From positions 1 to 64,000 of the IMG/VR virus record IMGVR_UViG_3300019471_000109: a stretch of DNA of 64,000 nucleotides; one strand, 5' to 3'. Each line of letters begins with the position of its first letter. Positions within the stretch are counted from its first letter, which is position 1. The notes beneath the pieces were generated by a model that did not search any database, was not told where the DNA came from, and was given only the letters and a program-made list of their open reading frames with translations. Positions 6,856 through 46,265 of the stretch are shown here, one piece after another. This DNA is from a virus. The translations under genes were made by a program, and so were the position numbers.

Positions 6856-8136
6856 TTAATTACTTTTTAATTTAATACCAACAAACATCTATAACTTCTA
6901 TTTGCCGATTAAGTTATTCCAATCATCACCACGATTAATCTTTTCATTCTAATCAATAAAAGGATTAACTGATAATGCATATCTTGTCATTAATAAGACG
7001 TTATTATGGAAACTCATAGGATCTCTTGAAATATAAATCTATGAGCCATCTTCTTCTTGGTAAGGGCAATAATATAAAGAACCGATAATATCATCTGGAA
7101 TATATTCTTCATCTTCAGGCTCTTCATCTTTTGATACAGCTTCAGCAATATCAATATTATGTTTACATCCAACTACAAAATAGTCAAATTTGCTATAAGT
7201 GTCAATGTAAATTTTGAGACCTGATTTTAAATACCCATGAGATCTTGTCATTTCTGATTCTTGGTTGAAAACAACTAAACCAGCACCACATAATAAACCA
7301 TACACATCAGGAGATACAATTACATAAGTAGCTGAATATGTTGTGTTCTATAACATTTTCGCTGCTGCAGCACCGATCATAGAATTGATATCTCTACCAA
7401 TTTGCCATAAAGGGTCAGTTCTTGTTGATAAATCAATAAAACCATTAGTAATACCCAATGCTTTATCATCAAAACGTTTACTTACAGTGATTAATTTACT
7501 AATAATATCTTTATTAACTTCATTAACCAAAGCTGTTGCTAATGTATCCTCAACAATTGCGACAGAATCCATTCCATTTGCCTCAAGATCTTGAATTAAT
7601 TCTTGTGTTAATTTGATCTAAATTTTTCTAGTTCTACATGGAACAACCCATTTACCAATTTCAAATTTAGCTTCAATAGGTGCTTCACCTTCAGTATATG
7701 AAACTTCAGCGGCGTCTGAATATAATCTTAATGTTCCATCGATAACAGCTTTTAGCACAACAACTGATAAATCTGCATCAGCACTTAATGTTCCAGCTTT
7801 AACTGCGATATAAATTGCATCATTATCAGGCGTTCTATATACTTTATCTTTAGTTACAGATAAACCACTTGATAAAACCGGTAAATCTTTAACTTTATTT
7901 TTACTATTTGTGCCAGTAACAGTTAAATTATTATCATGTAATGTTTGACCATCTTCAGTCAAATATTTTAACCCAAAAATTTGTGCTTCTGGGTTATTTG
8001 TTTGTTGAATAGCTACCATATCACGGAAAACTCTTGAGGCAACTGTTTTCTATAATGATACTAAGTACGGGCGAGTTCCCTAAATTGCGTTGGTTTTTGT
8101 CTATTCTTGTAGTAATTCTTCTAAAATTCTAGCCAT
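6856..8136 (-). CDS. 24: gp23/gp24-family capsid protein (closest to the T4 vertex protein gp24), 426 aa, 9 in-frame TAG
   Basis: The N-terminus MARILEELLQE-TAG-TKTNAI matches T4 gp24 MAKINELLRESTTTNSNSIG. QDLEANGMD, KIYIDTYSKFDYFVVG and LMTRYALSVNPF are also conserved. The track ORFs 7039..7305, 7348..7572 and 7618..8019 are pieces of this one frame. Confidence 0.75.
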
Positions 8137-10014: not shown

Positions 10015-10434
10015 TTAATACGTTACTTTAATTGTTACATCAACCGCATCTAATTCTTCAATCATAGTTTCTTTTAAAAGAGGGAGATCCGATAATAAAT
10101 CATCAATAGCATTACCAACAATCGTGGCTGGTGTTAATGAAATCAATAAAATGTTATCATCTACGGTATACAATTTCTCTACAACTAGTTCGTAATCCCC
10201 AAAAGCTTGACGATAATCATACGGTTGTTCCGGGTCAATTTCTTTGCCATCATTTTGGCCAATCATGTTAGCAATAAATTCAGAATGAATGTGTTTCACT
10301 TCATCTCTTGTTAAGCTTCCTTTAGGGTTAGACACATTAATAAAAATCGAAGGTGATAGATTATAAGATAATCTTTGTTCTAAAATCGCAGCCAATTTAT
10401 TAACTACTTGAATGGAAATCATATTTTCTCCCAT
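10015..10434 (-). CDS. Hypothetical protein
   Basis: ORF track. Confidence 0.55.
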   Translation of the reverse strand: MGENMISIQVVNKLAAILEQRLSYNLSPSIFINVSNPKGSLTRDEVKHIHSEFIANMIGQNDGKEIDPEQPYDYRQAFGDYELVVEKLYTVDDNILLISLTPATIVGNAIDDLLSDLPLLKETMIEELDAVDVTIKVTY

Positions 10435-10856
10435 TAGAATTTTTTAAGACGTTGTTCAAGAACGTGCTTATATGCTTTTAATAATTCAAATTGTTTTTGT
10501 AACAATTCATCCGATGATAAATGAGAACAAACTTTAGCTAATTTTTCAAGTTTTGTTTCCAATTCATCAAGTTCAATTTTAACATTATCTTCCCATGTCA
10601 AAACTTTTTCTCGATAATATTTTTCTTGTACTTGATACCCATATACATTCCACATTTTATCAAATGTATTATCGTATGCAACTTTTTTACCAATTTCAAA
10701 ATCAAAATTTTCTGGATCGATTACCCCAGCATCACCCTGAAAAACATATCCATTTTTAACCGTAATAACGCAATGAACACATCTGCCAGGAACAGTTTTA
10801 ATATATTGAACATCTTTGATTTGTGATTCTAAAAATTCTTTTGTTAATCTGTACAT
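10434..10856 (-). CDS. Hypothetical protein
   Basis: ORF track. Confidence 0.55.
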   Translation of the reverse strand: MYRLTKEFLESQIKDVQYIKTVPGRCVHCVITVKNGYVFQGDAGVIDPENFDFEIGKKVAYDNTFDKMWNVYGYQVQEKYYREKVLTWEDNVKIELDELETKLEKLAKVCSHLSSDELLQKQFELLKAYKHVLEQRLKKF

Positions 10857-11348: not shown

Positions 11349-12857
11349 ATGATTAGATTCTAGAAAATTAATGAAACATACGGTAAAATCTAGACTCTTG
11401 ACAACGATGCCTTATGGGAAATTAAAGATTATTGTTAGTTTCAACCAGAAGGCTATAGATTTAACAAAAAATATAAATATGGTGCTTGGTCCGGAAAGAT
11501 TTAGCTCGTTGGATAGAATGGAGAATTTCCATTAGGTTTACTAAAAATCATTGTTAAATTTTGCGTAGAGTCTAAATATAAAATCGAAATCTCTGATACA
11601 TTAAAAACTCATAAAGCATTTGAATCAAAAGAAGAATTTGATAAATGGATCGATTCAAAAGAAATTTGGGCTAAAGGTGTTAGAATTGATCCATATTGGT
11701 ATCAAAGAGAATCTGTTTTTCAAGCATTACAAAAAACCCGTGGAATTATTAATGCGCCTACTTCAGCTGGTAAATCTTTAATGATTGCATTACTTGCAAA
11801 ATGGTTTTCGGAAAATTTTGATCAAAAGGTATTGGTGATTGTTCCAACTACATCTTTAACTGTGCAAATGAAAAATGATTTAGTTGACTATAGATTATTC
11901 AAAGAATCTGATATCGCTGAAATTAGATCCGGAACTTCTCATTTTGTTTATGATAAAACAGTTGTAGTTTAGACCTGGCAATCCGCTCATAAAAAAGACC
12001 CTGAATGGTTTGAACAATTTGGAATGCTTATTGTTGATGAAACACATTTAGCTACAGGTGCTAGCATATAGCAAATGGTTAAACTAATGACTAATTGTGT
12101 TTATAAGATAGGTTTATCCGGTTAGTTAAAAGATGGTAAAGCAAACATTTTAAATTATATCGGTTTATTTGGCGATATTATTAAACTTGTTTAGACTAAT
12201 CAGTTAATGGAAGAAGGACAAGTTGCTAAATTAAAAATCAAAGCACTAAAAATTGATTATCCGGAATCAGACAAAAAAGAGCATAAAAAAGATACTTACG
12301 ACGAAGAAATAAAATTCATTACAAAAAATGAAAAACGTAGTAAATTGCTAGCAAAACTTGCTATTGGGTGTTCTTCAAAAAATAATGATGAAAATACTTT
12401 GTTAATGTTTAGATATTAGGAACATGGTAAAATGATGTACGAAGAAATTTGTAAATCATATCCAAAAGAAAAAGTATTTTTTATTAATGGTGAAATTAAA
12501 ACTAAAGATCGCGTAAAAATTCAAGAATTAGCAGATAAAGTTTCTGGTATTATTATTGTGGCATAGTACGCAACAACAGGTACTGGTATCAGTATTAAAA
12601 ATCTTTAGAATGTTATTTTTGGATAGCCGATTAAATCTAAAGTAACAGTGTTACAAACAATCGGAAGATCTTTAAGATTACATAAAGATAAAGAATTTGC
12701 TACAGTTTATGATATTATTGATGATTTAAGTATCAGATCTGCAAAAACTGGAAAAATTACCCATTAGAATTATGCACTAAAACATGGATTAGATCGTATT
12801 AAACGATATAATGAAGAGAAATTTGAATACTAGATTAATTCTTATTAGTTAAAATAA
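11349..12857 (+). CDS. uvsW: UvsW helicase (SF2 DNA/RNA helicase), 502 aa with 16 in-frame TAG
   Basis: Aligns along its whole length with T4 UvsW (NAPTSAGKSLM, VIVPTTSLT, VVV-TAG-TWQ, DETHLATG, LSG-TAG-LKDGKAN, IVA-TAG-YA, VLQTIGRSLR). The track ORFs 11781.. and 12207.. are in-frame pieces. Confidence 0.8.
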
Positions 12858-13258: not shown

Positions 13259-14119
13259 TTATACCTCTAATTCTTTTATCGGATTTTTGTATAATCTTTT
13301 TTCATATTTTTCTTCATATCCATAAGGATTTGAAATAAACTTAATACCTTGTTCTTCAAATTCAATTGGGCTATGAATATGTCCAGAAATCCAATAATTT
13401 GGCTTTCTTTGTAGATCTTTAAACATTTTAGAACAATCAGTAAAATATGAATAATCTAATAATTCAATTTCCGGTTTCCAGTTTCTAAGTTTTCTAAAAT
13501 TATCAACAAACTTTTGCAAAGGAGCATGATGTGTAACTACAATAAATGCTTGATCTTTTCTTAATCCTTGTGAAGCAGAAATTAATTTTTGCCAAGATTG
13601 ATCAAATTCAACAAATGCATCTTCTGGTAAAAATTTTCTATAACCAGCTTTTAGAATCATTTTTCCGAAATCATTCATTTTTAATTTTGCTTCTAACATC
13701 GCCATCGGTTCTGCCTTATTAAAATTTGTCCATAATGTTGCACCGTAAATTCTTACGGGTTTATCTTTTATAAACAAATCAATATATTCTTTTTCTAAAA
13801 AATATAAATTAGAAAATAATTCTTGTTGTATTGATTTGCAAAAGAATTTAGAATCAGTTAATTGATTTTGGTAATTTTCATGGTTTCCCTTAATTAAAAT
13901 AACTGGGCAACCAAAAGAACACATATGTCTGATAAATGTGATATATTTCCCTTTAGCAGTTGAGTTATGACATTGACCTATATCACCAGCTAAAATAATT
14001 AAATCAAATTCATCTGTTTCTTTAATTTTTAATAACTTAAAAACAGTTTCTTTATCAGATAAATCAGAATCCCAGAAGTCAATATGAAAGTCAGACGCAA
14101 TAAATGTTTTTAATTTCAC
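13259..14119 (-). CDS. Calcineurin-like metallophosphoesterase
   Basis: DFH, GDIG and GNHE metallophosphatase motifs. It uses a GTG start. Confidence 0.7.
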   Translation of the reverse strand: MKLKTFIASDFHIDFWDSDLSDKETVFKLLKIKETDEFDLIILAGDIGQCHNSTAKGKYITFIRHMCSFGCPVILIKGNHENYQNQLTDSKFFCKSIQQELFSNLYFLEKEYIDLFIKDKPVRIYGATLWTNFNKAEPMAMLEAKLKMNDFGKMILKAGYRKFLPEDAFVEFDQSWQKLISASQGLRKDQAFIVVTHHAPLQKFVDNFRKLRNWKPEIELLDYSYFTDCSKMFKDLQRKPNYWISGHIHSPIEFEEQGIKFISNPYGYEEKYEKRLYKNPIKELEV

Positions 14120-14533
14120 TTAGAATTCCCCTTGTTCAAATTTATCCCTGTCTAGAATATTCTTCAATGCAAATCCACGTTGTTTAATTGCTTCTAATGC
14201 TTCTCGAATAAAATCTAATTTTAAGCTTAATACATATAACTTCTAGTCTGCTTTTTGTAATTCAGTATCAGCCGCTAAAACAATTTTCAATTCAGACTTT
14301 TCATATGATTCCATACAAATACCTTCGCGGCCAGTATAATAATCAAGTCTTGCTTTTAATGTTCTAGATTTTTCATTTTCAGCTTGCTTCATTAAAAATT
14401 TTACGTTCTAAAAATAATTAAGCCACTTAGAATACAAGTAAGGATTATTTGCGATTTGCTATTGCAACCCAATTAGATTAATTTTAATATCTTCAGCAAG
14501 TTCTTGCTGTAATTGTTCTAAATTTTTTTCCAT
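14120..14533 (-). CDS. uvsY: UvsY recombination mediator (137 aa, 3 in-frame TAG)
   Basis: Clear similarity to T4 UvsY (LYSKWLN, KARLDYYTGR, YEKSELK, RGFALKNI). Confidence 0.8.
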
Positions 14534-14547
14534 AATTACATAAAAAT

Positions 14548-14572
14548 AAAGGTAGACTTATTATCTACCTTA
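14548..14572 (-). terminator. Terminator hairpin (AGGTAGA...TCTACCT) downstream of nadV
   Basis: Inverted repeat plus T-run on the minus strand. Confidence 0.5.
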
Positions 14573-14603: not shown

Positions 14604-16244
14604 TTAGTTCATTCTGTTATTTCTACGAACATCATCGAATGAATATTCTTTAATCAATTGACCGTTTTCAAATACAAGTTCAAGTTTACCGCCTTCATCT
14701 TGCCCTTTTGACAAATTATCAATAAAGGTTTCAGAATCTAAAACTTTTACACGGCCTTTTTGCGATTTTTTCATTCCGCTATCAGTTTTTGGATCTTTGA
14801 AAATCGGAACTTCTTTACCGTTAATAATTGCTGAAGTTGCTTTGATTGCAAATCCAAAAGTATCACGAGTATTATATTGGAATGTATATGATCCGATACC
14901 TAAGACGATATTACTTGAAGCAAAACCTTTTTCTTTTAATCTTGAAAGAATTTGTTCAGCACGTTCTAAAGTAATAGAATCGCCGTAAATAGCACCGATA
15001 TGAGGATCTAAAACTTTATATCCTTTATCATTAATATATCCACCGAAAGTTTCATATAAGCACTGAATCAAGCCTTTTACATAAGGTTCATTTGTTACTA
15101 ATTTGAAACTAGGTTCAAAAATATTTGTACTTGTTACTAAATAGATATCTTCATTAATAATACAATATTTAGGACCAAAGACTGGCGAATTTACATAATA
15201 ATTAAATGCGTCTTTTAATGAATTGAAGTTAAATGCTTCAGATAAATCTACGCCACAAATAATTTCAACAGGATCGCCAGAATCTGGGCGAATAACCAAT
15301 TTACCTTCACGATTTAAAATTTTATCTTTTAACGCAGGCAAAACATTTTCAACCACGTTCCAGAAATCATATGTGTCCGATACAACTGAGAAAATACCTT
15401 CTTTATATAAATCAAGTAAAAATTCAAATGTTTTCTTATCATCTAAACCGTGTGAACTCATTACAGAATGTTCTGTTGCAGGAATACTTGTTCCAACTAA
15501 ACCTTCTGCGTTATAATATTTTTCAACAGCAGTAATTGCTGGGATTGTATCAGTTCCAACAAATGATACCAAATGGCCTAATCCAGATAATTCAGCAGAT
15601 TCTAAAGAACTCATTCCACGCATTGAAAAATCATGACCTTGGAACATAATATGATTATTATTATCACAAGTTTCTTCAGAGTATTTTTCAAAGATTTTTC
15701 GATATGCTAAAGAAATAGATGCAGAAGTCATTGGTTGCCATGTAGTGCAGCTAATTAAAGTTTCAAAATAATTTGTTAACCAATAAAATTTAGGATGTGT
15801 ATTTTCGATTGTCATTACCGGAACTTTAATTCCAACCGCTTCGCCTTCAGGAATTGCTTTAATTCTTAGCGGTAAGTAGCCAAGTTCATGAAGTTCTTTA
15901 AGGTGTTCGCCATTGTCTTCAACACCTAATGTATTTTTAATAAATGCTTTATACTGAGCTAAAACTTGTTTTAACGGAACTTTAAAGAAGTTATCATTAA
16001 AGAAATCAATTAAGTATTTTTTAATTAAGTATTGAAATCCTAATACAACAACTTGGTCAATAGGTTTTTCATTAACTTTTGGAGCATATTTATTTGTACG
16101 AGGAGTTAATGTACTATAAATTACTTCAGTTCCCGTTGGGTATTGCGCTCGATGCGAAATTTTATAAAAATCGCATAATAAAGCAGGGATACTTGATGTT
16201 TTTAAAATATTATTCATTAGTCTCTCCTTTATAATTGTAGTCAA
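14604..16244 (-). CDS. nadV: Nicotinamide phosphoribosyltransferase (NadV/NAMPT)
   Basis: 546-aa ORF with the overall NAMPT architecture. No TAG. Confidence 0.85.
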   Translation of the reverse strand: MTTIIKERLMNNILKTSSIPALLCDFYKISHRAQYPTGTEVIYSTLTPRTNKYAPKVNEKPIDQVVVLGFQYLIKKYLIDFFNDNFFKVPLKQVLAQYKAFIKNTLGVEDNGEHLKELHELGYLPLRIKAIPEGEAVGIKVPVMTIENTHPKFYWLTNYFETLISCTTWQPMTSASISLAYRKIFEKYSEETCDNNNHIMFQGHDFSMRGMSSLESAELSGLGHLVSFVGTDTIPAITAVEKYYNAEGLVGTSIPATEHSVMSSHGLDDKKTFEFLLDLYKEGIFSVVSDTYDFWNVVENVLPALKDKILNREGKLVIRPDSGDPVEIICGVDLSEAFNFNSLKDAFNYYVNSPVFGPKYCIINEDIYLVTSTNIFEPSFKLVTNEPYVKGLIQCLYETFGGYINDKGYKVLDPHIGAIYGDSITLERAEQILSRLKEKGFASSNIVLGIGSYTFQYNTRDTFGFAIKATSAIINGKEVPIFKDPKTDSGMKKSQKGRVKVLDSETFIDNLSKGQDEGGKLELVFENGQLIKEYSFDDVRRNNRMN

Positions 16245-17073
16245 ATGAATTTGATGTAGTTACTGATTTAAGATCGTCAAGATCTTTTAGTTTTCCTGAA
16301 AAGAATGATCTTTCAAGATGCGATACAATTAAATGAAAACCTGGAATAAACCAACGTTTTTTAATTTCATCAATCGCGCCTATAAATGTTCCTCCATAAG
16401 AACAAATATCATCCACAATAACAACTTCTTTATGGTCGAAGTCATTAACATCAGATAATACTTTCAAGTCAAACGATAATAACTTACCGGTGTTAAAATC
16501 TCTGATTTTTTCAATTGAAATTGCGCCATAAAATTCATTTGCTAAATGACCATAACGTTTAACCGCGGTTTTATCTGGAAAGCAAATTACATAATCCTTT
16601 AATGTTTTTCCAAGTGGAATTTCTGCTATTTTAAATGAATTATAAATTAACGAATCAATTTTGTTAATATTTTCTACATTTTTAACAACATTCAATAACA
16701 TATCTGAATGAGCATCATTGACAATTACTTTTTCAAATCCCAATGAATTTATGAAATCCGCTGCATATTGCAATGAAAAGAATTGATTAGGTGTTTTTAC
16801 ACGGTCCATTCTTGCGTACGGAAAATACGGAATATGTAATTCTTTAAAATTTTTATAATAAGGTGGAATTCCAGGCATACCTTGTTTCATGCTTTTGATT
16901 TTTTGAACAATAAACCATAAAGTCATAAAATCTTTATCATCTTTATAATGCCATTTGATAACAACATCTTTTGATTTCAAAATTGCATTTAGATTTTCTT
17001 CTGATAACTCAAGAATTTGTTCTCCAACAGGGTATTCATTTTGTATAAATTCCGTTCCGTTTATCGTAATCAT
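16210..17073 (-). CDS. prs: Ribose-phosphate pyrophosphokinase-like (Prs; PRPP-binding motif VVIVDDICSYGGTF)
   Basis: Type-I phosphoribosyltransferase/Prs motifs. The start is set at the internal ATG with an AGGAG RBS; the track's N-terminal extension overlaps nadV. Confidence 0.7.
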   Translation of the reverse strand: MITINGTEFIQNEYPVGEQILELSEENLNAILKSKDVVIKWHYKDDKDFMTLWFIVQKIKSMKQGMPGIPPYYKNFKELHIPYFPYARMDRVKTPNQFFSLQYAADFINSLGFEKVIVNDAHSDMLLNVVKNVENINKIDSLIYNSFKIAEIPLGKTLKDYVICFPDKTAVKRYGHLANEFYGAISIEKIRDFNTGKLLSFDLKVLSDVNDFDHKEVVIVDDICSYGGTFIGAIDEIKKRWFIPGFHLIVSHLERSFFSGKLKDLDDLKSVTTSNSFDYNYKGETNE

Positions 17074-17207
17074 AAGATCTCCTATTAAGTTAAACAAAAT
17101 AATTTGAATTTTAATAATAATAATTAAAGAAATTACTTTTATTTGTAAAAATAGTATCATCTAGAATGTACTTTTTCATCTTAAATGATAAATTATATCA
17201 GATAATA

Positions 17208-17278
17208 TCTAGAATGCATTCTAGAGTGTTCTAGATGCATTTATAAGATTTAGTAGAAAATCTGAATAAATATTCAGA
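17208..17278. promoter_or_regulatory. Two perfect palindromes (TCTAGAATGCATTCTAGA at 17208-17225; TCTGAATA-AA-TATTCAGA at 17261-17278) in a 420-bp intergenic region
   Basis: Read directly. Additional TCTAGA-containing half-sites lie at 17161-17235. Confidence 0.4.
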
Positions 17279-18842: not shown

Positions 18843-19109
18843 ATGGACCAAACTCAATTATTATAGCAATTACAACAACAAAATGCTGCGTTAAAAATTC
18901 GTGTATTTGATGCGGAAGAAGAATTAAACCATATCAAAACAAATATACAATCGTTTTTGAATGGTGTTGCTGATTTACTTCAACAAGATCAAATTACTCT
19001 TCAGACTGTTTATGATTATATTAAAGAGATTCATCCTGAATCTCAAAAAGAAGCAACTGATACTAATAATGATAACGGTGAAACATTATTGTTAGAGGGT
19101 AAAGAATGA
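18843..19109 (+). CDS. Small coiled-coil protein (88 aa, 1 TAG)
   Basis: Continuous frame; its stop TGA overlaps the next ATG. Confidence 0.45.
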
Positions 19110-19552
19110 GTAAAGTAAATTATGTTGGATGTAATCTTGGTAAAGTTGCTCAACAGATGATTTCTGACCTTTATAAAGAATATAAAATTCCAGAAGAAAA
19201 TCAAGTTAACTTAGACGATTTACATATTACTATTTTCAAGTCAGCTGAATTATTTGATTTTGATGACGATGAAAAAAATCTTTTAGAAGCTTTAGATTTT
19301 AATGAAGTAGAAATTGATTATTGGACACCAACTGGCAATCAAATGATTCTAAAAGTTAAATCTCAATTTTGTAATGATATATTTGAATCGTTACAAAAAA
19401 TTGCGAAACCGATTTATGATGATTATATTCCTCATATCACAATCGCAAGAGATTTACCGGTTGAAGTATTAAATACTTTACCAGAAAGATTAACTAAAGT
19501 AAAATTGAAATATTATCCAATTATTACAGAAGTTTATTCTAAAGTTCTTTAA
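19106..19552 (+). CDS. 2H phosphoesterase (LigT-like) paralogue
   Basis: HITIF and HITIA motifs (two H-x-T-x). Confidence 0.7.
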   Translation: MSKVNYVGCNLGKVAQQMISDLYKEYKIPEENQVNLDDLHITIFKSAELFDFDDDEKNLLEALDFNEVEIDYWTPTGNQMILKVKSQFCNDIFESLQKIAKPIYDDYIPHITIARDLPVEVLNTLPERLTKVKLKYYPIITEVYSKVL

Positions 19553-19886: not shown

Positions 19887-19963
19887 GGTCCTATGGTATA
19901 GATTGGTTAACATACTGCGCTGTCACCGCGGAGTCACGGGTTCGAGCCCCGTTAGGACCGCCA
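19887..19963 (+). tRNA. tRNA-Asp (GTC)
   Basis: Cloverleaf folded by hand: acceptor GGTCCTA/TAGGACC, anticodon loop CTGTCAC, GGTTCGAGCC T-arm, CCA encoded. Confidence 0.85.
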
Positions 19964-20060
19964 ATTTCAAAAACAACTATAAAAATTTAGTGTTTTAGCG
20001 CTGATGTTCAAGGTTATAATAAATTAACTACAAGGCCTAGTTGTTCACTATTTATTAAAT

Positions 20061-20137
20061 GCCCCGTTAATTCAATTGGATAGAATATTCGCCTTCTAAG
20101 CGAACTGTTGCAGATTCGAATTCTGCACGGGGTGCCA
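20061..20137 (+). tRNA. tRNA-Arg (TCT)
   Basis: Acceptor GCCCCGT/ACGGGGT, anticodon loop CTTCTAA, TTCGAAT T-loop, CCA encoded. Confidence 0.85.
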
Positions 20138-20234
20138 AATATTTTAAATCAGAATACTAACAGCAATAATTATTTTTATATTTTTCATGGTTAGATAGAA
20201 CGATAAAACAGTATTCTGTTTTAAAATATTTCAT

Positions 20235-20308
20235 GCGTCTATGGTATAATGGTATTATTCTTGGCTTCCAACCAAGTGATGAGAGTTCGATTCTCTCTAG
20301 CCGCACCA
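20235..20308 (+). tRNA. tRNA-Gly (TCC)
   Basis: D-arm GTATAATGGTAT as in T4 tRNA-Gly, anticodon loop CTTCCAA, TTCGATT T-loop. One T-C mismatch at acceptor position 4:69. Confidence 0.75.
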
Positions 20309-20531
20309 AATTATAAAATAAAAGTTTATACATAATTTTGTATGATATAATAAAACAGAATTACGTAATCGTGAGTGAACCACGTTAATAGTTCGGTAAG
20401 AGAGGCAAAGTACTCCTTATGGCTAAAACAGAGGTGTAGTTAGTAAAGACAATGTCTAAAGTCGAATTACTAAGTTTAATTTTATATTAAATGGTTTATA
20501 GATACCCAAACGAAATCTAAGAAGACACGTA

Positions 20532-21299
20532 TTATGTATTCTTTTTGCAGTATTTACTACAAAATTTTACTTTAGATTTTCTTTTATTATTAGTAGAAAA
20601 TTCTTTGTTACATCTATCACAAATGTATGTATATTTTGGTTTGTAATTTTGATACATTTCTTGTAATTTTTTATTAGGAAAATTAACTTTAAACCAATTG
20701 AACATAAAATCTAAATCTTTCTTATATAATATTTGTATATTATATCCTTGTGATTTTGCAGCATTTAATTTTAAATCTACTAATGGGGTATGAAATCCTT
20801 TTATTTCTATGATTGTATTATCTCCTAGAATAAAATCTGGATAATATTTTTTATTATTATCATATAAAATATAGAAATCACATCTTTTGAATTTTATATT
20901 ATGATGTAAATTATAGATTACCCATAGTAATTCATATGTTGACCCGCAAAATATATTGTTATAATAACCCTGGATAGATCGACCACTATTTTCTCTATAT
21001 CCTCCGGTGTTACCTTTATTAACATTAGAAATATGTTTCGCAGCACATTCTAGGGAACAACATTTTTTATTCTCTTGACATGGATTGACATACATAATTT
21101 TATTACAAATAATACAATTTTTAATAATTTTAGGCTTCTTTAATTTTTCGGAAGCTTCTTTAAATTTAATCTAATTTTTGATAGATTTCTATAATTTTTC
21201 TTTATGTTCTTTAGACCATGATCTGCTATTAGCACATTTTCTAGAACAGAAAGCGCCGGATTTATTATGTAGTGTTTTACATTTAGGACATTCTTTCAT
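20532..21299 (-). CDS. Free-standing nuclease, probably a homing endonuclease: three CxxC...CxxxC zinc-ribbon repeats plus a PD-(D/E)xK-like core (YYPDF...IIEIKG); 2 in-frame TAG
   Basis: Track ORF 20532..21095 extended upstream through two TAGs to ATG (complement 21297-21299). It lies between tRNA genes, as segB does in T4. Confidence 0.55.
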
Positions 21300-21360
21300 A
21301 ATATTATTTTAAATAAAAAGTTATATATATTGATTATTTAAATAAAATCAATTTAAAAAT

Positions 21361-21388
21361 AAGGGTTCGATTCCCTTACGGAATACCA
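21361..21388 (+). pseudogene. Isolated tRNA 3' fragment (T-arm AAGGG TTCGATT CCCTT + ACGGAAT + A + CCA)
   Basis: T-arm and 3' acceptor strand with CCA, but no upstream D-arm or anticodon arm. Confidence 0.4.
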
Positions 21389-21508
21389 AATAAAAGTTTA
21401 CATACATAAATTTTTATGTATTATTAAAAAGAATTTTGGATTAACTACAGCAACTTAATTAGACTTGACTTTTAATCAATAATCTAGAAAGAATAATCCG
21501 TTTTATTT

Positions 21509-21584
21509 GGCTCAGTAGCACAATGGTTAGTGCGTTCGGCTGTTAACCGAGAGGTTATAGGTTCAAGTCCTATCTGGGCCGCCA
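21509..21584 (+). tRNA. tRNA-Asn (GTT)
   Basis: Acceptor GGCTCAG/CTGGGCC, anticodon loop CTGTTAA, CCA encoded. Confidence 0.85.
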
Positions 21585-21606
21585 AAATTTATTCTATTGA
21601 GTCTAT

Positions 21607-21695
21607 GGAAGACTGGCAGAGCGGTCTAATGCAGCGGATTCTAAATCCGACAACCGGACGTATCCGGTTCCCGAGTTCGAATCTCGGGTCTTCCG
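21607..21695 (+). tRNA. Amber-suppressor tRNA with tRNA-Ser identity and a CUA anticodon (tRNA-Ser(CTA)); the anticodon is at 21641-21643
   Basis: Type-II tRNA with acceptor GGAAGAC/GTCTTCC and G73 discriminator. D-arm GCAGAGCGGTCTAATGC with a 3-bp stem as in E. coli tRNA-Ser. Anticodon loop TTCTAAA has U33, CUA and A37. The long variable arm AACCGGA-cgta-TCCGGTT and T-arm CCGAG TTCGAAT CTCGG follow. CCA is not encoded. Confidence 0.8.
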
Positions 21696-21781
21696 AGAAA
21701 ATTTTAATTTTAGAGTTTTCCCGGAAGATTAAAAATGATTGAGGTTAGACTATTTTGGAATAGTAGTAGAAATATTTCTAT

Positions 21782-22429
21782 TTGTATAAAATTACAAATT
21801 TAGTTAATAATAAAATTTATATCGGTGCTCATTCAACAACAAATTTAAATGATAATTATATGGGCTCTGGTAAGCTAATAAAATTAGCAATTAACAAATA
21901 CGGTATTAATAATTTTAAAAAAGAAATTTTAGAATTTTTTAATTCAGTTGAAGAGTTATATAGCAGAGAAAAAGAAGTTGTTAATCTGGATTTTGTGAAA
22001 AGATCTGACACATATAATTTAATTGTAGGCGGAACTGGTTAGTGGTTTTACGTTAATAAATTTGTTAATTCAAATGAGTTTATGACTAAAATCGGAAAAC
22101 TTGGCAACGAGGCATTTTCCGCTAAACTGAATAATGATTCAAATTTTAAAAATTCTTGGAAAATAAAAATATCTAAAGCTAAAAAGAATTTTTATAAAAA
22201 TAATCCGGAAGCAAGGTTTAAAAATAGATATAAACATGATGGTTTTAAACATTCCGAAGAAACTAAATTAAAAATGAGAGAAATAAAAAAGAAAAATCCT
22301 CCGGTAGGAGATAAAAACTCTCAATATGGCACGATGTGGATTTGTAATTTAGATTTACAACTAAATAAAAAGATTTCAAAATATGAACAAATTCCGGATG
22401 GTTGGATTAAAGGCCGGAAGGTAAAATAA
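21782..22429 (+). CDS. GIY-YIG homing endonuclease (SegB-like) with a NUMOD-like DNA-binding motif; 1 in-frame TAG
   Basis: GIY-YIG N-terminus ([17 protein letters not shown]...R...E). Track ORFs 21782..22042 and 22082..22429 are in the same frame, joined by a TAG. The C-terminal [15 protein letters not shown] is a NUMOD3-like motif. It sits inside the tRNA cluster as segB does in T4. Confidence 0.75.
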
Positions 22430-22473
22430 ATAAGTGTAAAAAAATACTAACAGCAATTATTTGTCGCTGAATG

Positions 22474-22545
22474 TCGGCGGGTAGCTTAATTGGAAAAGCA
22501 GCAGACTGAGAATCTGTATATCTTGGTTCGAATCCAAGCCTTGTA
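22474..22545 (+). ncRNA. tRNA-like element with an unpaired acceptor: good D-arm (GCTT/AAGC), anticodon arm (loop CTGAGAA) and T-arm (CTTGG TTCGAAT CCAAG), but 5' CGGCGGG and 3' CCTTGTA cannot pair
   Basis: Hand-folded. It is either a degenerate tRNA or a tRNA-like structure. Confidence 0.35.
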
Positions 22546-22615
22546 AATAGTATTTTGTTTTTAATTAAAATGAGTTTTATTAAACCAGAATTCGAACAGC
22601 AATTATTTTCTTAAA

Positions 22616-22686
22616 TTTTCCTGGTACGAAAAGGGTGTAGGTTCGAGTCCTACTGCGGAATTTCCGTATGGTGTAATGGGAGCATG
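22616..22686 (+). ncRNA. Permuted or fragmented tRNA-like element: anticodon arm (TTTTC CTGGTAC GAAAA, anticodon GGT/Thr), T-arm (GTAGG TTCGAGT CCTAC) and 3' acceptor TGCGGAA-T, followed directly by a matching 5' acceptor TTCCGTA plus a D-arm (GTGT AATGGGA GCAT)
   Basis: The two halves make a complete cloverleaf only if joined in permuted order. All 7 acceptor positions pair (6 Watson-Crick plus 1 G-U). Confidence 0.35.
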
Positions 22687-22722
22687 TAAAAGAAAGAATC
22701 CTGATTTAATATAATTTGTTAT

Positions 22723-22800
22723 TGCGATGAATTAGAGCTGGTGCACTAACTGGTCTCATAAGCCATGATTAGGTGGGTTCGATTCTCACCATCGCAACCA
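22723..22800 (+). tRNA. tRNA-Met or tRNA-Ile2 (CAT)
   Basis: Acceptor TGCGATG/CATCGCA, anticodon loop CTCATAA, T-loop TTCGATT, CCA encoded. The D-loop is slightly long. Confidence 0.7.
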
Positions 22801-22802
22801 AT

Positions 22803-22878
22803 AGGCCGTTAGCTCAGTCGGTAGAGCAGTTGACTTTTAATCAACTGGTCACAAGTTCAAATCTTGTACGGCCTACCA
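22803..22878 (+). tRNA. tRNA-Lys (TTT)
   Basis: Acceptor AGGCCGT/ACGGCCT, D-arm GCTCAGTCGGTAGAGC, anticodon loop CTTTTAA, CCA encoded. Confidence 0.85.
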
Positions 22879-22891
22879 AATTTATTATTTT

Positions 22892-22968
22892 CTCGGATTA
22901 GCTCAGCTTGGTAGAGCAAAGTCTTGATAAGGCTTGGGTCACTAGTTCGAATCTAGTAACGAGAACCA
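22892..22968 (+). tRNA. tRNA-Ile (GAT)
   Basis: D-arm GCTCAGCTTGGTAGAGC, anticodon loop TTGATAA, T-arm ACTAG TTCGAAT CTAGT, CCA encoded. Two mismatches at the base of the acceptor stem. Confidence 0.7.
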
Positions 22969-22974
22969 ATTTAT

Positions 22975-23050
22975 GTGGCGGTATCATAAATGGTAATGAT
23001 CTGGATTGTGATTTCAGAATATGTTGGTTCGAAGCCAACTCGTCACCCCA
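22975..23050 (+). tRNA. tRNA-His (GTG)
   Basis: Acceptor GTGGCGG/TCGTCAC with two G-U pairs, anticodon loop TTGTGAT, C73 discriminator, CCA encoded. No encoded G-1 is evident. Confidence 0.65.
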
Positions 23051-45776: not shown

Positions 45777-46265
45777 ATGTTAATTATTAAACACGGCGAT
45801 ATTTTTGAGGAATTTAAAAATTCTACAAATTGCATTTTAGTTCATGGATGTAATTGTTGTAATATTATGGGTGCTGGTATCGCAGCTGCTATTAGCATAA
45901 AATATCCTATGGCGTATGATATTGATAAAGCTATGCACAATTTACCAAATAATAAAGTAAATGAATTAATGGCAGGTAGATATTCAATTGTTCCAGATTT
46001 CTCAAATAGATGTAAGTCAAATTATATTGGAAATCTTTATACTCAATTATTTCCCGGAAAACATTTTAGCTACGACTTATTCATTTCTTGTTTACATAAT
46101 TTAGAAAAAGAAGTGTTAAAATCGTTTGGAATCAAAAAGATCCTGATGCCTGCTATCGGTTGCGGTATTGGCGGAGGCAATTTTGATTATGTAGTTAATA
46201 TTGTTATGAATTGGTGTAGATTTAATGTTCCGGATATTGAAGTACATTTATATTATCCGCAATAA
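45777..46265 (+). CDS. Macro-domain protein (ADP-ribose binding or ADP-ribosyl hydrolase)
   Basis: ILVHGCNCCNIMGAGIAAAI is a macro-domain signature (N-x-x-G-G-G/A-V-x-x-A-I pattern). Confidence 0.6.
   Translation: MLIIKHGDIFEEFKNSTNCILVHGCNCCNIMGAGIAAAISIKYPMAYDIDKAMHNLPNNKVNELMAGRYSIVPDFSNRCKSNYIGNLYTQLFPGKHFSYDLFISCLHNLEKEVLKSFGIKKILMPAIGCGIGGGNFDYVVNIVMNWCRFNVPDIEVHLYYPQ

Follow-up and report, generated by a model that had tools for sequence, protein, structure and literature searches.

Which pathway do two adjacent phage genes encode when one resembles a PRPP synthetase (Prs) and the other a nicotinamide phosphoribosyltransferase (NAMPT, or NadV)? Such a pair lies in the 64,000-nucleotide stretch of viral DNA analysed here (IMG/VR record IMGVR_UViG_3300019471_000109, hereafter the window; genome ~150 kb), and its public labels are 'phosphoribosyltransferase' and 'nicotinamide phosphoribosyltransferase'. 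The initial annotation had read it as an NAD salvage module in which Prs supplies PRPP for NadV. Such a scheme, with PRPP made by Prs and NMN by NadV, had been predicted from annotation for this operon type, and experiments refuted it (Osterman et al. 2024). In NAD+ reconstitution pathway 1 (NARP1), the same gene pair in the same order yields ADPR-pyrophosphate (ADPR-PP) and then NAD+, not PRPP and NMN: Adps, which has the Prs fold, converts ADP-ribose and ATP to ADPR-PP, and Namat, which has the NAMPT fold, converts ADPR-PP and nicotinamide to NAD+ (Osterman et al. 2024). From its sequence we predict with high confidence that the locus is a NARP1 operon.

Layout of the operon

Open reading frames and family matches far beyond chance confirmed the two same-strand genes, one NAMPT-like and one Prs-like, on the minus strand. 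Their order had been given as NAMPT followed by the Prs-like gene; it is the reverse, with the Prs-like gene upstream and transcribed first. Read from the sequence, adps starts at an ATG at 17073 and stops at a TAA at 16212-16210. A longer version of this ORF, from 17160, gains nothing but a hydrophobic leader that is AT-rich and has no counterpart in homologues. For namat, the ORF list gives a TTG start at 16244, and we prefer the ATG at 16217, with AAAGGAGAG ahead of it. The namat start and the adps stop overlap by 8 nt (ATGAATAA), and the two genes are translationally coupled. On a Logan contig that encodes an identical Adps protein, genes called independently had products of the same two lengths, 287 and 537 aa.

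The terminator reported after the pair was found as a hairpin followed by a T-run; a scan of 4.2 kb yielded only two such sites. Upstream of adps, a TATAAT is invariant in relatives, with an extended TG in the window only. It is preceded by a perfect 18-bp palindrome (TCTAGAATGCATTCTAGA, 17208-17225) that is partly conserved in relatives. The palindrome has no second copy in the window, and we rejected it as a promoter class because the motif does not recur there.

Table 1 Coordinates of the features of the operon and of the unlinked Macro-domain gene.
Feature	Coordinates	Strand	Details
adps, predicted ADP-ribose pyrophosphokinase (Prs-like), operon gene 1	16210..17073	-	287 aa; ORF and RBS
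namat, predicted nicotinamide ADP-ribose transferase (NAMPT-like), operon gene 2	14604..16217	-	537 aa
RBS of adps, AGGAG	17079..17083	-	Read from sequence; kept in relatives
RBS of namat, AAAGGAGAG	16222..16230	-	Inside adps 3' end; read from sequence
Intrinsic-terminator-like hairpin and T-run 3' of namat	14541..14571	-	9-bp stem 14571-14549, then TATTTTTAT
Candidate promoter region (inferred)	17192..17225	-	TATAAT 17197-17192 and palindrome upstream
Macro-domain (Poa1p/tk.4-like) gene, unlinked	45777..46265	+	PF01661 30.8 bits, cut-off 22; only Macro gene found in window

The Prs-like protein groups with Adps

We considered whether the upstream gene could be a genuine PRPP synthetase. Against TIGR01251 its product scored 74 bits (E=9.5e-21), under the cut-off of 113, as do the validated Adps proteins of SPbetaL1 (106 bits) and ICP1 (98 bits); E. 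coli Prs scores 423 bits. All other Prs models gave 24-56 bits against cut-offs of 296-536, so that every curated Prs cut-off was missed. The initial annotation had proposed a profile assignment of this gene to Prs or NatV, and had named an unrelated phosphoribosyltransferase as an outcome that would count against its reading. The Prs fold stood and membership of the Prs family did not: a protein with that fold that lies outside the family by curated cut-offs matches the latter outcome in spirit.

In simple neighbour-joining (NJ) trees with a solely gammaproteobacterial Prs outgroup, Adps-like proteins including that of the window separated from 13 cellular Prs with 100/100 bootstrap support. 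The window clade was never basal, and the protein nested within the Namat-linked Adps clade. Its median identity is 30.6% to other Adps-like proteins versus 21% to E. coli Prs. The protein is divergent: no Adps of a deposited phage exceeds 34% identity to it, and the two validated enzymes share 25-31%.

The published functional residues are kept despite this distance. We mapped Y14, R88, H122, D167, K189, D221, D222 and the PP loop C224-T229 onto the ICP1 and SPbetaL1 Adps. The catalytic K189 lies on the beta-hairpin and corresponds to ICP1 K185 and SPbetaL1 K162. The acceptor-site residues R88, H122, D167, D221 and D222 are conserved as well (ICP1 R87, H121, D161, D212 and D213), and all six are invariant in 14 natural variants. 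The hairpin is of the Adps type (EKIRDFNTGK), and the protein carries HSD, not HAE. Adps homologues are described as sharing a remodelled PP loop. That of the window protein, C-S-Y-G-G-T-F, resembles S-S-F-G-G-T-F of the validated SPbetaL1 enzyme and the loop of many Namat-linked homologues but not C-D-G-A-A-S-F of ICP1, and its GGT also occurs in Prs. The protein has 287 aa to the 315 of E. coli Prs, a difference of 28, and in alignment it starts ~21 residues later and stops ~30 residues earlier. Loss of the Prs C-terminal helices, the alpha11-alpha12 regulatory/filament module, is a published feature of Adps, and by alignment the window protein is predicted to lack this module.

Gene context points the same way. 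A Namat-type gene adjoins 97% of Adps-clade genes (Osterman et al. 2024), and in our own sample a Namat-like gene followed on the same strand in all 83 Adps-like loci long enough to judge.

The NAMPT-like protein carries Namat signatures

In profile searches the downstream product matched NAPRTase (E=2.8e-45), NAMPT_N (E=4e-09) and NF006629 (571 bits). A PDB search matched SPbetaL1 Namat at E=1.2e-170 for 9W5W (~1e-170 for 9W5W and 9W5X), versus ~1e-77 for true NAMPTs, and SPbetaL1 was also the closest match among deposited phages by tblastn (51.5% identity).

We examined the adenine clamp, for which a helix signature, GSxPhixPhixPhiTRD with aromatics at the X positions, has been published for Namat. 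The window protein fits it with G442-S-Y-T-F-Q-Y-N-T-R-D452 (GSYTFQYNTRD). In our own set, G[S/A][Y/F]x[Y/F]..TRD was present in nearly all Adps-linked proteins, and all five NAMPTs without an Adps partner had GGG[L/I]. In the Namat clamp loop, residue 3 is Arg, Lys or Tyr, and after Lys or Tyr it is residue 4 that stacks; the loop of the window protein, T-N-K43-Y44, follows this rule. The catalytic residues D16, Y18, F197, R200, D223, H250, R310 and D312 are conserved.

A simple NJ tree, with only five NARP2-type sequences as outgroup, placed the protein in the Adps-linked clade against NMNAT-linked NAMPTs (bootstrap 100/100), at a distance of 0.61 to SPbetaL1 versus 1.3-1.6 to NARP2-type proteins. 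An insertion of ~48 aa follows RPDSG; 21 of 57 homologues have an insertion at the same site.

The best PDB match overall was 9ke8 (E=3e-185). We dropped it as a reference: its origin was not established, and its clamp region, GAQTYQRNTRD, deviates. Its best deposited-phage match is only ~65% identical, and a literature search on the code was empty. The SPbetaL1 structures 9W5W and 9W5X served as reference in its place.

Proposed pathway and alternatives

In the mechanism that we propose, a host SIR2-, TIR- or SEFIR-type defence would split NAD+ into ADP-ribose and nicotinamide. Adps would then move the beta-gamma pyrophosphate of ATP onto the 1'' position of ADP-ribose to give ADPR-PP, and Namat would replace the pyrophosphate with nicotinamide to give NAD+ in one step. 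NAD+ would thus be rebuilt with no need for PRPP, NMN or an NMN adenylyltransferase (NMNAT). Both enzyme activities, and a role in counter-defence, are expected from homology to the tested operons of Bas63, SPbetaL1, FADO, ICP1 and Paenibacillus. The view that the pair is a two-gene NAD-restoring module directed against NAD-depleting defences probably holds on the same grounds, since homologous operons defeated Thoeris I, DSR1, DSR2, SIR2-HerA and SEFIR in experiments (Osterman et al. 2024).

The supply of PRPP by Prs fits poorly with proteins that bear Adps and Namat signatures. In its full form, this alternative has a genuine PRPP synthetase feeding a genuine NAMPT, with the resulting NMN turned into NAD+ by host NadR or PncC/NadD or by a phage NMNAT elsewhere. 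The Pfam, NCBIfam and PHROG names agree with it, and enzymes of the Namat type accept PRPP in vitro. A search with three phage NMNATs by tblastn found no NMNAT homologue in the 64-kb window (best E=0.3), and ~90 kb of the genome lies beyond. Against it stand the Prs-like protein, under all Prs cut-offs and inside the Namat-linked Adps clade, and the adenine clamp and clade of its partner. Both members of the Adps clade that have been assayed made ADPR-PP, and the one also assayed for the Prs reaction yielded no product. For Bas63 the model was refuted by experiment, as rescue required neither pncC nor nadR, and NARP1 and NARP2 have been reported together in no phage. We therefore regard a PRPP-based route as highly improbable. 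Some NMN production is a separate matter: because Namat enzymes keep PRPP-dependent NMN synthesis in vitro, the window Namat may also make some NMN. No PnuC- or NadR-type fold was present in the two proteins; these folds define NARP3 (a PnuC-like transporter and a NadR-like enzyme).

Could the pair remake NAD+ from ADP-ribose and nicotinamide mainly as phage metabolic housekeeping and not as counter-defence, for example by recycling NAD+ spent by T4-type ADP-ribosyltransferases or by sustaining nucleotide metabolism? According to T4 annotation, enzymes of the Alt/ModA/ModB type use up NAD+ in T4-like phages, and NARP2 increases NAD+ also when no defence system is present. Yet ADPR-PP was seen in a tested phage only with an active NADase defence, and the phenotype of NARP1 deletion was specific to defence-carrying hosts. 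ADP-ribosyltransferases, moreover, do not release free ADP-ribose, the Adps substrate, as is established biochemistry. We judge a housekeeping role very unlikely.

A third alternative is that a divergent Adps and an insertion-bearing Namat have shifted in specificity, for example to another ADP-ribose derivative, so that product or input differ from canonical NARP1. The ~30% identity of the Adps to characterised enzymes, a PP loop unlike that of the solved ICP1 structure, and the insertion and longer clamp loop of the Namat would allow for this. Every mapped acceptor, catalytic and clamp residue is conserved, however; the PP loop is of the type found in the biochemically validated SPbetaL1 Adps, and the insertion site varies in a third of ordinary Namats. 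Such a shift appears extremely unlikely, and we retain canonical NARP1 as the preferred reading.

Lineage, conservation and neighbours

Metagenomic contigs of ~150 kb carry the pair in ~95-100 natural sequence variants, and the operon is also conserved in relatives. Across the variants, functional residues either do not vary or have conservative replacements; the exception is clamp position Y448, where 6 of 15 have Met. A near-identity DNA search of deposited phages returned only a 53-bp match, and no cultured relative was found among them (best rIIA match, 29% identity). The phage represents a T4-like lineage that branches deeply. NARP1 in this lineage would imply that its host uses NAD-depleting immunity.

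The neighbours of the operon are uvsY, a downstream metallophosphoesterase gene, DUF2685, a gp3/gp19-like gene and a dNMP kinase gene. None of these, nor an Acb1-like gene or others, occurred beside NARP1 in 83 distant loci. We had considered the metallophosphoesterase as an analogue of Adpp, the ADPR-1''-phosphate phosphatase that counters aRES-type defences, and abandoned it because of this negative result.

An unlinked Macro gene and stop-codon recoding

No Macro-domain gene lies within two genes of adps or namat. The Macro gene found elsewhere in the window (Table 1) is homologous to Macro ORFs that sit between adps and namat in four other loci (L016, L021, L024 and L042), and it matched the operon-embedded Macro of Vibrio phage Pontus at E=6e-12. 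Yeast Poa1p is among its top PDB matches. The family, which includes T-even tk.4, is also widespread among T4-like phages that lack NARP1. The gene could be a candidate Adpp-type accessory enzyme, with membership in the module only a hypothesis.

In this lineage TAG is a serine codon, read by a tRNA-Ser(CUA). The amino acid was settled by an alignment test against T4; TAG-to-sense swaps in close relatives offered only 3-4 informative sites. Neither the adps-namat operon nor the Macro gene contains a TAG codon. The absence of TAG suggests that the operon is translatable in the standard code of the host, ahead of the action of the Ser-suppressor tRNA.

One could envisage a split NARP1, in which the Adpp step is supplied in trans by the Macro gene, and the operon and the Macro gene, both TAG-free and so translatable in the standard code, are translated before tRNA-Ser(CUA) changes how TAG-rich genes are decoded. 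We hold this to be unlikely. If it were true, the tk.4-type Macro genes that are so common in T4-like phages would encode enzymes of NAD salvage and counter-defence, and stop-codon recoding would be a timing device that separates counter-defence from TAG-bearing genes.

Implications for annotation

The operon almost certainly belongs to an already-described pathway type, and its carrier is an uncultured T4-like phage that reads TAG as serine. It is an ordinary further NARP1 member of a system already known; what is unusual is its context, TAG-free counter-defence genes in a TAG=Ser lineage. With it, NARP1 reaches a T4-like lineage that is recurrent, uncultured and deep-branching and has genomes of ~150 kb.

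The locus is also a clean example of systematic mislabelling. Reading the pathway from the names goes wrong because generic HMMs cannot separate the families: Pfam, PHROG 619 and NF006629 distinguish neither Adps from Prs nor Namat from NAMPT. E. coli Prs scored 193 bits against phrog_619 and the window Adps 196 bits, and a NARP2-type NAMPT also matched phrog_448 strongly. On these scores we rejected PHROG assignment as a discriminator. Three checks do separate the families: the clamp motif, failure at the Prs cut-offs, and adjacency.

Comparison with known systems

Cellular Prs (TIGR01251) shares with the window Adps the fold, the acceptor-site Asp, His and Arg, and the catalytic-loop Lys. 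It differs in its flexible loop and PP loop, and the window Adps is only 21% identical to the E. coli enzyme.

NARP2 combines NAMPT with a bifunctional NMNAT/Nudix enzyme (Vibrio phage KVP40 type) and is common in T4-like and phiCbK-like phages. It too employs a NAMPT-fold enzyme and restores NAD+ in infection, and it is the partner arrangement that had been expected for T4-like phages. The window Namat, in contrast, is 27-29% identical to NAMPTs without an Adps partner, which have GGG[L/I] and not an aromatic clamp; it falls outside the NARP2-type clade (100/100), and its partner is Adps, not NMNAT. A Prs-like partner had also been thought an unusual variant, whereas it is the commoner one: NARP1 (Prs-like and NAMPT-like) is found in 4.3% of phages and NARP2 (NAMPT and NMNAT) in 1.1%.

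NARP1-AP (adps, Macro-domain Adpp, namat; Vibrio phage Gary type) has the same Adps and Namat as the window. We made this comparison with Vibrio phage Pontus, presumed to be a relative from the same host strain. In the window, the Macro gene is ~29 kb away and outside the operon.

The ICP1 Adps, from a Vibrio phage, is the only solved Adps (structures in PMC13586617) and is likewise a Prs-like two-domain protein of ~280 aa. The window Adps keeps its R87, H121, D161, K185, D212, D213, the aromatic at F18 and the beta-hairpin K-x-R-D-x-x-T-G. The two differ in overall sequence (25.5% identity) and in the PP loop (C-D-G-A-A-S in ICP1, C-S-Y-G-G-T in the window), and the window Adps has no equivalent of F92 or F223. 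SPbetaL1 Adps also departs from ICP1 in the PP loop and at F92.

The SPbetaL1 NARP1 (Adps WIT26982, Namat WIT26983; Namat structures 9W5W and 9W5X) comes from an SPbeta prophage, unlike the T4-like, TAG=Ser phage of the window. The window Adps is only ~31% identical to its counterpart. In the window Namat, the clamp loop has Lys-Tyr in place of the stacking Arg of SPbetaL1 and is longer by 6 residues, and the extra ~48-aa insertion follows RPDSG. The two systems nevertheless share the order of the two genes, which overlap or abut. Their Adps proteins have the S-[Y/F]-G-G-T-F type of PP loop and the catalytic Lys in common, and their Namats, 58% identical over MAFFT-aligned columns (51.5% by tblastn), have the same catalytic residues and clamp class.

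Layout of the operon

As the initial annotation described, two genes share one strand (the minus strand); a terminator-like hairpin with a T-run follows the pair. It had placed the NAMPT-like gene first; in transcription order the Prs-like gene, adps, comes first and the NAMPT-like gene, namat, second. We preferred the adps start at 17073 over 17160, where the longest mechanical ORF begins, because aligned homologues begin at the equivalent of 17073; the extra part is only a hydrophobic, AT-rich leader. For namat, the automatic ORF start is a TTG at 16244. The alternative ATG has AAAGGAGAG upstream, and its overlap with the adps stop is 8 nt (ATGAATAA). Products of 287 and 537 residues were also called independently on Logan contig SRR5637669, which encodes an identical Adps protein.

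Features of the window discussed in the text
Feature	Position	Strand	Remarks
TAG-bearing example gene	957-1934	minus
TAG-bearing example gene	6856-8136	minus
140-aa gene	10434-10856	minus	Logan record: PF13876 (Phage_gp49_66), weakly PF21825 'Sequestin'
TAG-bearing example gene	11349-12857	plus
Calcineurin-like metallophosphoesterase	13259-14119	minus	same strand as operon, downstream of uvsY
TAG-bearing example gene	14120-14533	minus
Hairpin (9 bp), then T-run	14571-14541		downstream of namat
namat (NAMPT-like)	ATG 16217 to 14604	minus	537 aa, downstream gene
Namat insertion	15067-15225		residues about 325-377
adps (Prs-like)	ATG 17073 to TAA 16212-16210	minus	287 aa, upstream gene
adps ribosome-binding site AGGAG	17083-17079	minus	read from sequence
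TATAAT	17197-17192		upstream of adps
18-bp palindrome	17208-17225		just upstream of TATAAT
Acb1-like gene (anti-CBASS 2H phosphoesterase)	19106-19552	plus	PF23474, E=2.7e-11, above cut-off
tRNA cluster, eight genes	19887-23050		Asp, Arg, Gly, Asn, CUA suppressor, Lys, Ile, His
Class-II tRNA, anticodon CUA	21606-21696	plus	91 nt, within tRNA cluster
Macro-domain gene (Poa1p/T-even tk.4-like)	45777-46265	plus	162 aa

The operon is collinear in relatives, and ~95-100 natural variants of it are known. Across these variants every mapped residue is either unchanged or conservatively replaced (Y226/F, F446/Y), except for Namat Y448, in whose place 6 of 15 have Met. Two IMG/VR relatives carry a 1-nt frameshift in namat near codon 61 (L007:7036-7039 and L008:1404-1407), probably an assembly or sequencing error of older metagenomes, since namat is intact in a third relative, L009, and in the window.

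Leftward and rightward gene blocks diverge from the 425 bp upstream of adps. A TATAAT in this region is invariant in relatives and carries an extended TG in the window alone; the adjacent perfect palindrome, TCTAGAATGCATTCTAGA, occurs in a single copy in the window and is partly degenerate in relatives. Together they may represent a promoter with its operator. The adps upstream region also holds four TCTAGA sites inside 76 bp. At the other end of the operon, L009 (89-95% identical) has an extra 421-aa gene (L009:2963-4228) between namat and uvsY, matching the spacer near window position 14570; this spacer is accordingly a plastic site, open to insertion. With its DPPY motif, the extra gene resembles one for a DNA methyltransferase.

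The upstream protein resembles Adps

Pfam, NCBIfam and PHROGs label the upstream protein a Prs-like phosphoribosyltransferase, a name that points toward the initial reading in which Prs supplies PRPP to NadV. We compared it with Adps, a Prs-fold enzyme that converts ADP-ribose and ATP to ADPR-pyrophosphate (ADPR-PP). On TIGR01251 it scored 74 bits against a cut-off of 113, and it fell far under the cut-offs of all other Prs models. Two validated Adps enzymes, from Bacillus phage SPbetaL1 (106) and Vibrio phage ICP1 (98), were likewise below the TIGR01251 cut-off, whereas E. coli Prs reached 423 bits. PHROG 619 was rejected as a discriminator, giving 196 bits for the window protein and 193 for E. 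coli Prs.

In neighbor-joining trees, the window protein and two close relatives formed a clade (100/100) that was never basal and nested with both validated enzymes. Adding 13 cellular Prs sequences, gammaproteobacterial only, split the Adps-like proteins from Prs at 100/100. Median identity was 30.6% to other Adps-like proteins versus 21% to E. coli Prs. Residues mapped onto the ICP1 structure paper were Y14 (F18), R88 (R87), H122, D167 and D221/D222, and K189 corresponds to catalytic K185 of ICP1 and K162 of SPbetaL1. The beta-hairpin reads EKIRDFNTGK in the window, VKIRDVKTGD in ICP1 and DKRRPRANVS in Prs. The PP loop (C-S-Y-G-G-T-F) gives mixed evidence, being like that of SPbetaL1 (S-S-F-G-G-T-F) and unlike that of ICP1 (C-D-G-A-A-S-F). 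In the alignment, E. coli Prs extends beyond the protein at both ends; the ICP1 structure paper gives loss of the C-terminal alpha11-alpha12 module as an Adps trait.

The downstream protein resembles Namat

The downstream protein is labeled NAMPT/NAPRTase by Pfam, NCBIfam (NF006629, 571 bits) and PHROGs. In a PDB search it matched SPbetaL1 Namat (9W5W/9W5X) at E ~1e-170 and mammalian NAMPTs at ~1e-77, and its top deposited-phage match was also SPbetaL1 (51.5%). Identity was only 27-34% to those NAMPTs from T4-like and phiCbK-like phages that adjoin NMNAT or lack Adps. The Adps-linked Namat clade, including the window protein, separated from a NARP2-type (NAMPT plus NMNAT) outgroup at 100/100. 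The best PDB match overall, 9ke8/9keo (E=3e-185), bears no label beyond 'nicotinamide phosphoribosyltransferase'; the sequence of its clamp region, GAQTYQRNTRD, departs from the Namat consensus, and its nearest deposited phages are ~65% identical.

The Namat structure paper describes a selectivity-clamp helix, G-S-X-Phi-X-Phi-X-Phi-T-R-D, whose aromatic X residues stack on adenine. The window helix reads G442-S-Y-T-F-Q-Y-N-T-R-D452. Within our own set, G[S/A][Y/F]x[Y/F]..TRD occurred in almost all Adps-linked proteins, and NAMPTs without an Adps partner had GGG[L/I] in five of five. The clamp loop, T-N-K43-Y44, fits the rule 'Lys or Tyr third, stacker fourth', and catalytic residues D16, Y18, F197, R200, D223, H250, R310 and D312 are kept. 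An insertion of ~48 aa after RPDSG, weakly similar to a larger insert in the Namat of Listeria phage LMSP-25, is by these comparisons ordinary variation: same-site insertions of 30-90 aa occur in 21 of 57 Namats, LMSP-25 included.

A probable NARP1 operon

Working with phage Bas63, Osterman et al. deleted its 'prs-nampt' operon; rescue from SIR2-HerA proved independent of host pncC and nadR, and ADPR-PP was detected in infected cells only when the defence system was present. Purified SPbetaL1 Adps adds pyrophosphate to ADP-ribose and yielded no product when assayed for Prs activity, and purified SPbetaL1 Namat forms NAD+ from ADPR-PP and nicotinamide, preferring ADPR-PP over PRPP (Osterman et al.). 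A route from Prs through PRPP and NadV to NMN, as the family labels would have it, is contradicted for this operon type, and the window pair bears Adps and Namat signatures; we regard that route as highly improbable here. On the question first posed, Prs versus NatV, the Prs-like gene lies under all curated Prs cut-offs, and three phage NMNAT/Nudix protein queries found no match (best E 0.3) in the window, 64 kb of a ~150-kb genome. From its sequence, the pair is very probably a NARP1 operon, that is, the Adps plus Namat pathway.

The earlier description of a Prs partner as an uncommon variant does not hold, since NARP1 occurs in 4.3% of phages and NARP2 in 1.1%, with both together in none (Osterman et al.). 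The theme of NAD-restoring counter-defence is upheld, by homology: homologous NARP1 operons overcome five NAD-depleting systems, Thoeris I, DSR1, DSR2, SIR2-HerA and SEFIR (Osterman et al.).

As a context sample, we gathered 83 Adps-like loci from IMG/VR. A Namat-like gene adjoins adps in every locus extending far enough, downstream and on the same strand in 83 comparable loci. In 83 distant loci, no gene that neighbors the window pair was seen again next to NARP1, so the two genes alone make up the conserved unit. The metallophosphoesterase, never beside NARP1 in these loci, is therefore probably unrelated to the module. The Acb1-like gene lies 2 kb from the operon and adjoins dNMP kinase in T4-like synteny (57B/gene 1), and the 140-aa gene sits between Rnl2 and uvsW.

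TAG decoding in the phage genome

The phage is T4-like and carries genes for gp8, gp9/10, a gp23-family capsid protein, UvsW, UvsY, gp41, DNA polymerase, rIIA, Rnl1, Rnl2 and dNMP kinase, as well as the Acb1-like gene; no close cultured relative was found, rIIA being at best 29% identical. In-frame TAG codons occur in many of these genes (16 in uvsW, 10 in gp8, 9 in gp23-like), and allowing read-through gave 90 genes at 90.6% coding density. By our own reading, the CUA tRNA resembles tRNA-Ser, with a G discriminator. Of 59 TAG sites aligned with T4, 16 paired with Ser (27% versus a 6% background, p=4e-7); Thr and Asn came next, and Gln occurred once. TAG also occupies the Ser that is invariant in the family-B polymerase motif KxxxNSxYG, and the 'YISMEM' position of gp41. 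The phage reads TAG as a sense codon, most likely for Ser. In a large survey of recoded gut phages, TAG-to-Gln and TGA-to-Trp were the only changes reported where the phage code differs from that of the host, and our literature searches turned up no account of phages that use TAG for Ser.

The 56 Ser positions of adps and namat include no TAG (P about 0.008, given the TAG share across the genome), and both are therefore translatable in the standard code, which would fit expression ahead of any switch in code. Among genes of at least 200 aa, 21 in the window lack TAG, rIIA, dNMP kinase and Rnl2 among them; TAG is abundant in the structural genes, uvsW and uvsY. This suggests a division into genes that the host code can read and genes that depend on the suppressor. 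Because TAG-rich uvsW is not a late structural gene, an early/late divide alone does not describe the partition.

Comparison with known NARP systems

The NARP1 system itself is already known, and the window pair is a further example. Its main value lies in the annotation lesson, that family names are insufficient, and in the unusual phage genome that carries the operon. Elsewhere in the window, a Macro-domain gene has homologues among the Macro ORFs that lie inside adps-macro-namat operons of other phages (E=6e-12 to that of Vibrio phage Pontus) and weakly matches yeast Poa1p. Its family is that of Adpp, the phosphatase by which NARP1-AP overcomes aRES defence; however, this family (T-even tk.4) is widespread among phages, T4-like ones included, that have no NARP1. 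The gene is a possible unlinked Adpp, its functional link to the operon being only a hypothesis. In NARP1-AP the Macro gene is embedded in the operon, whereas here it is unlinked.
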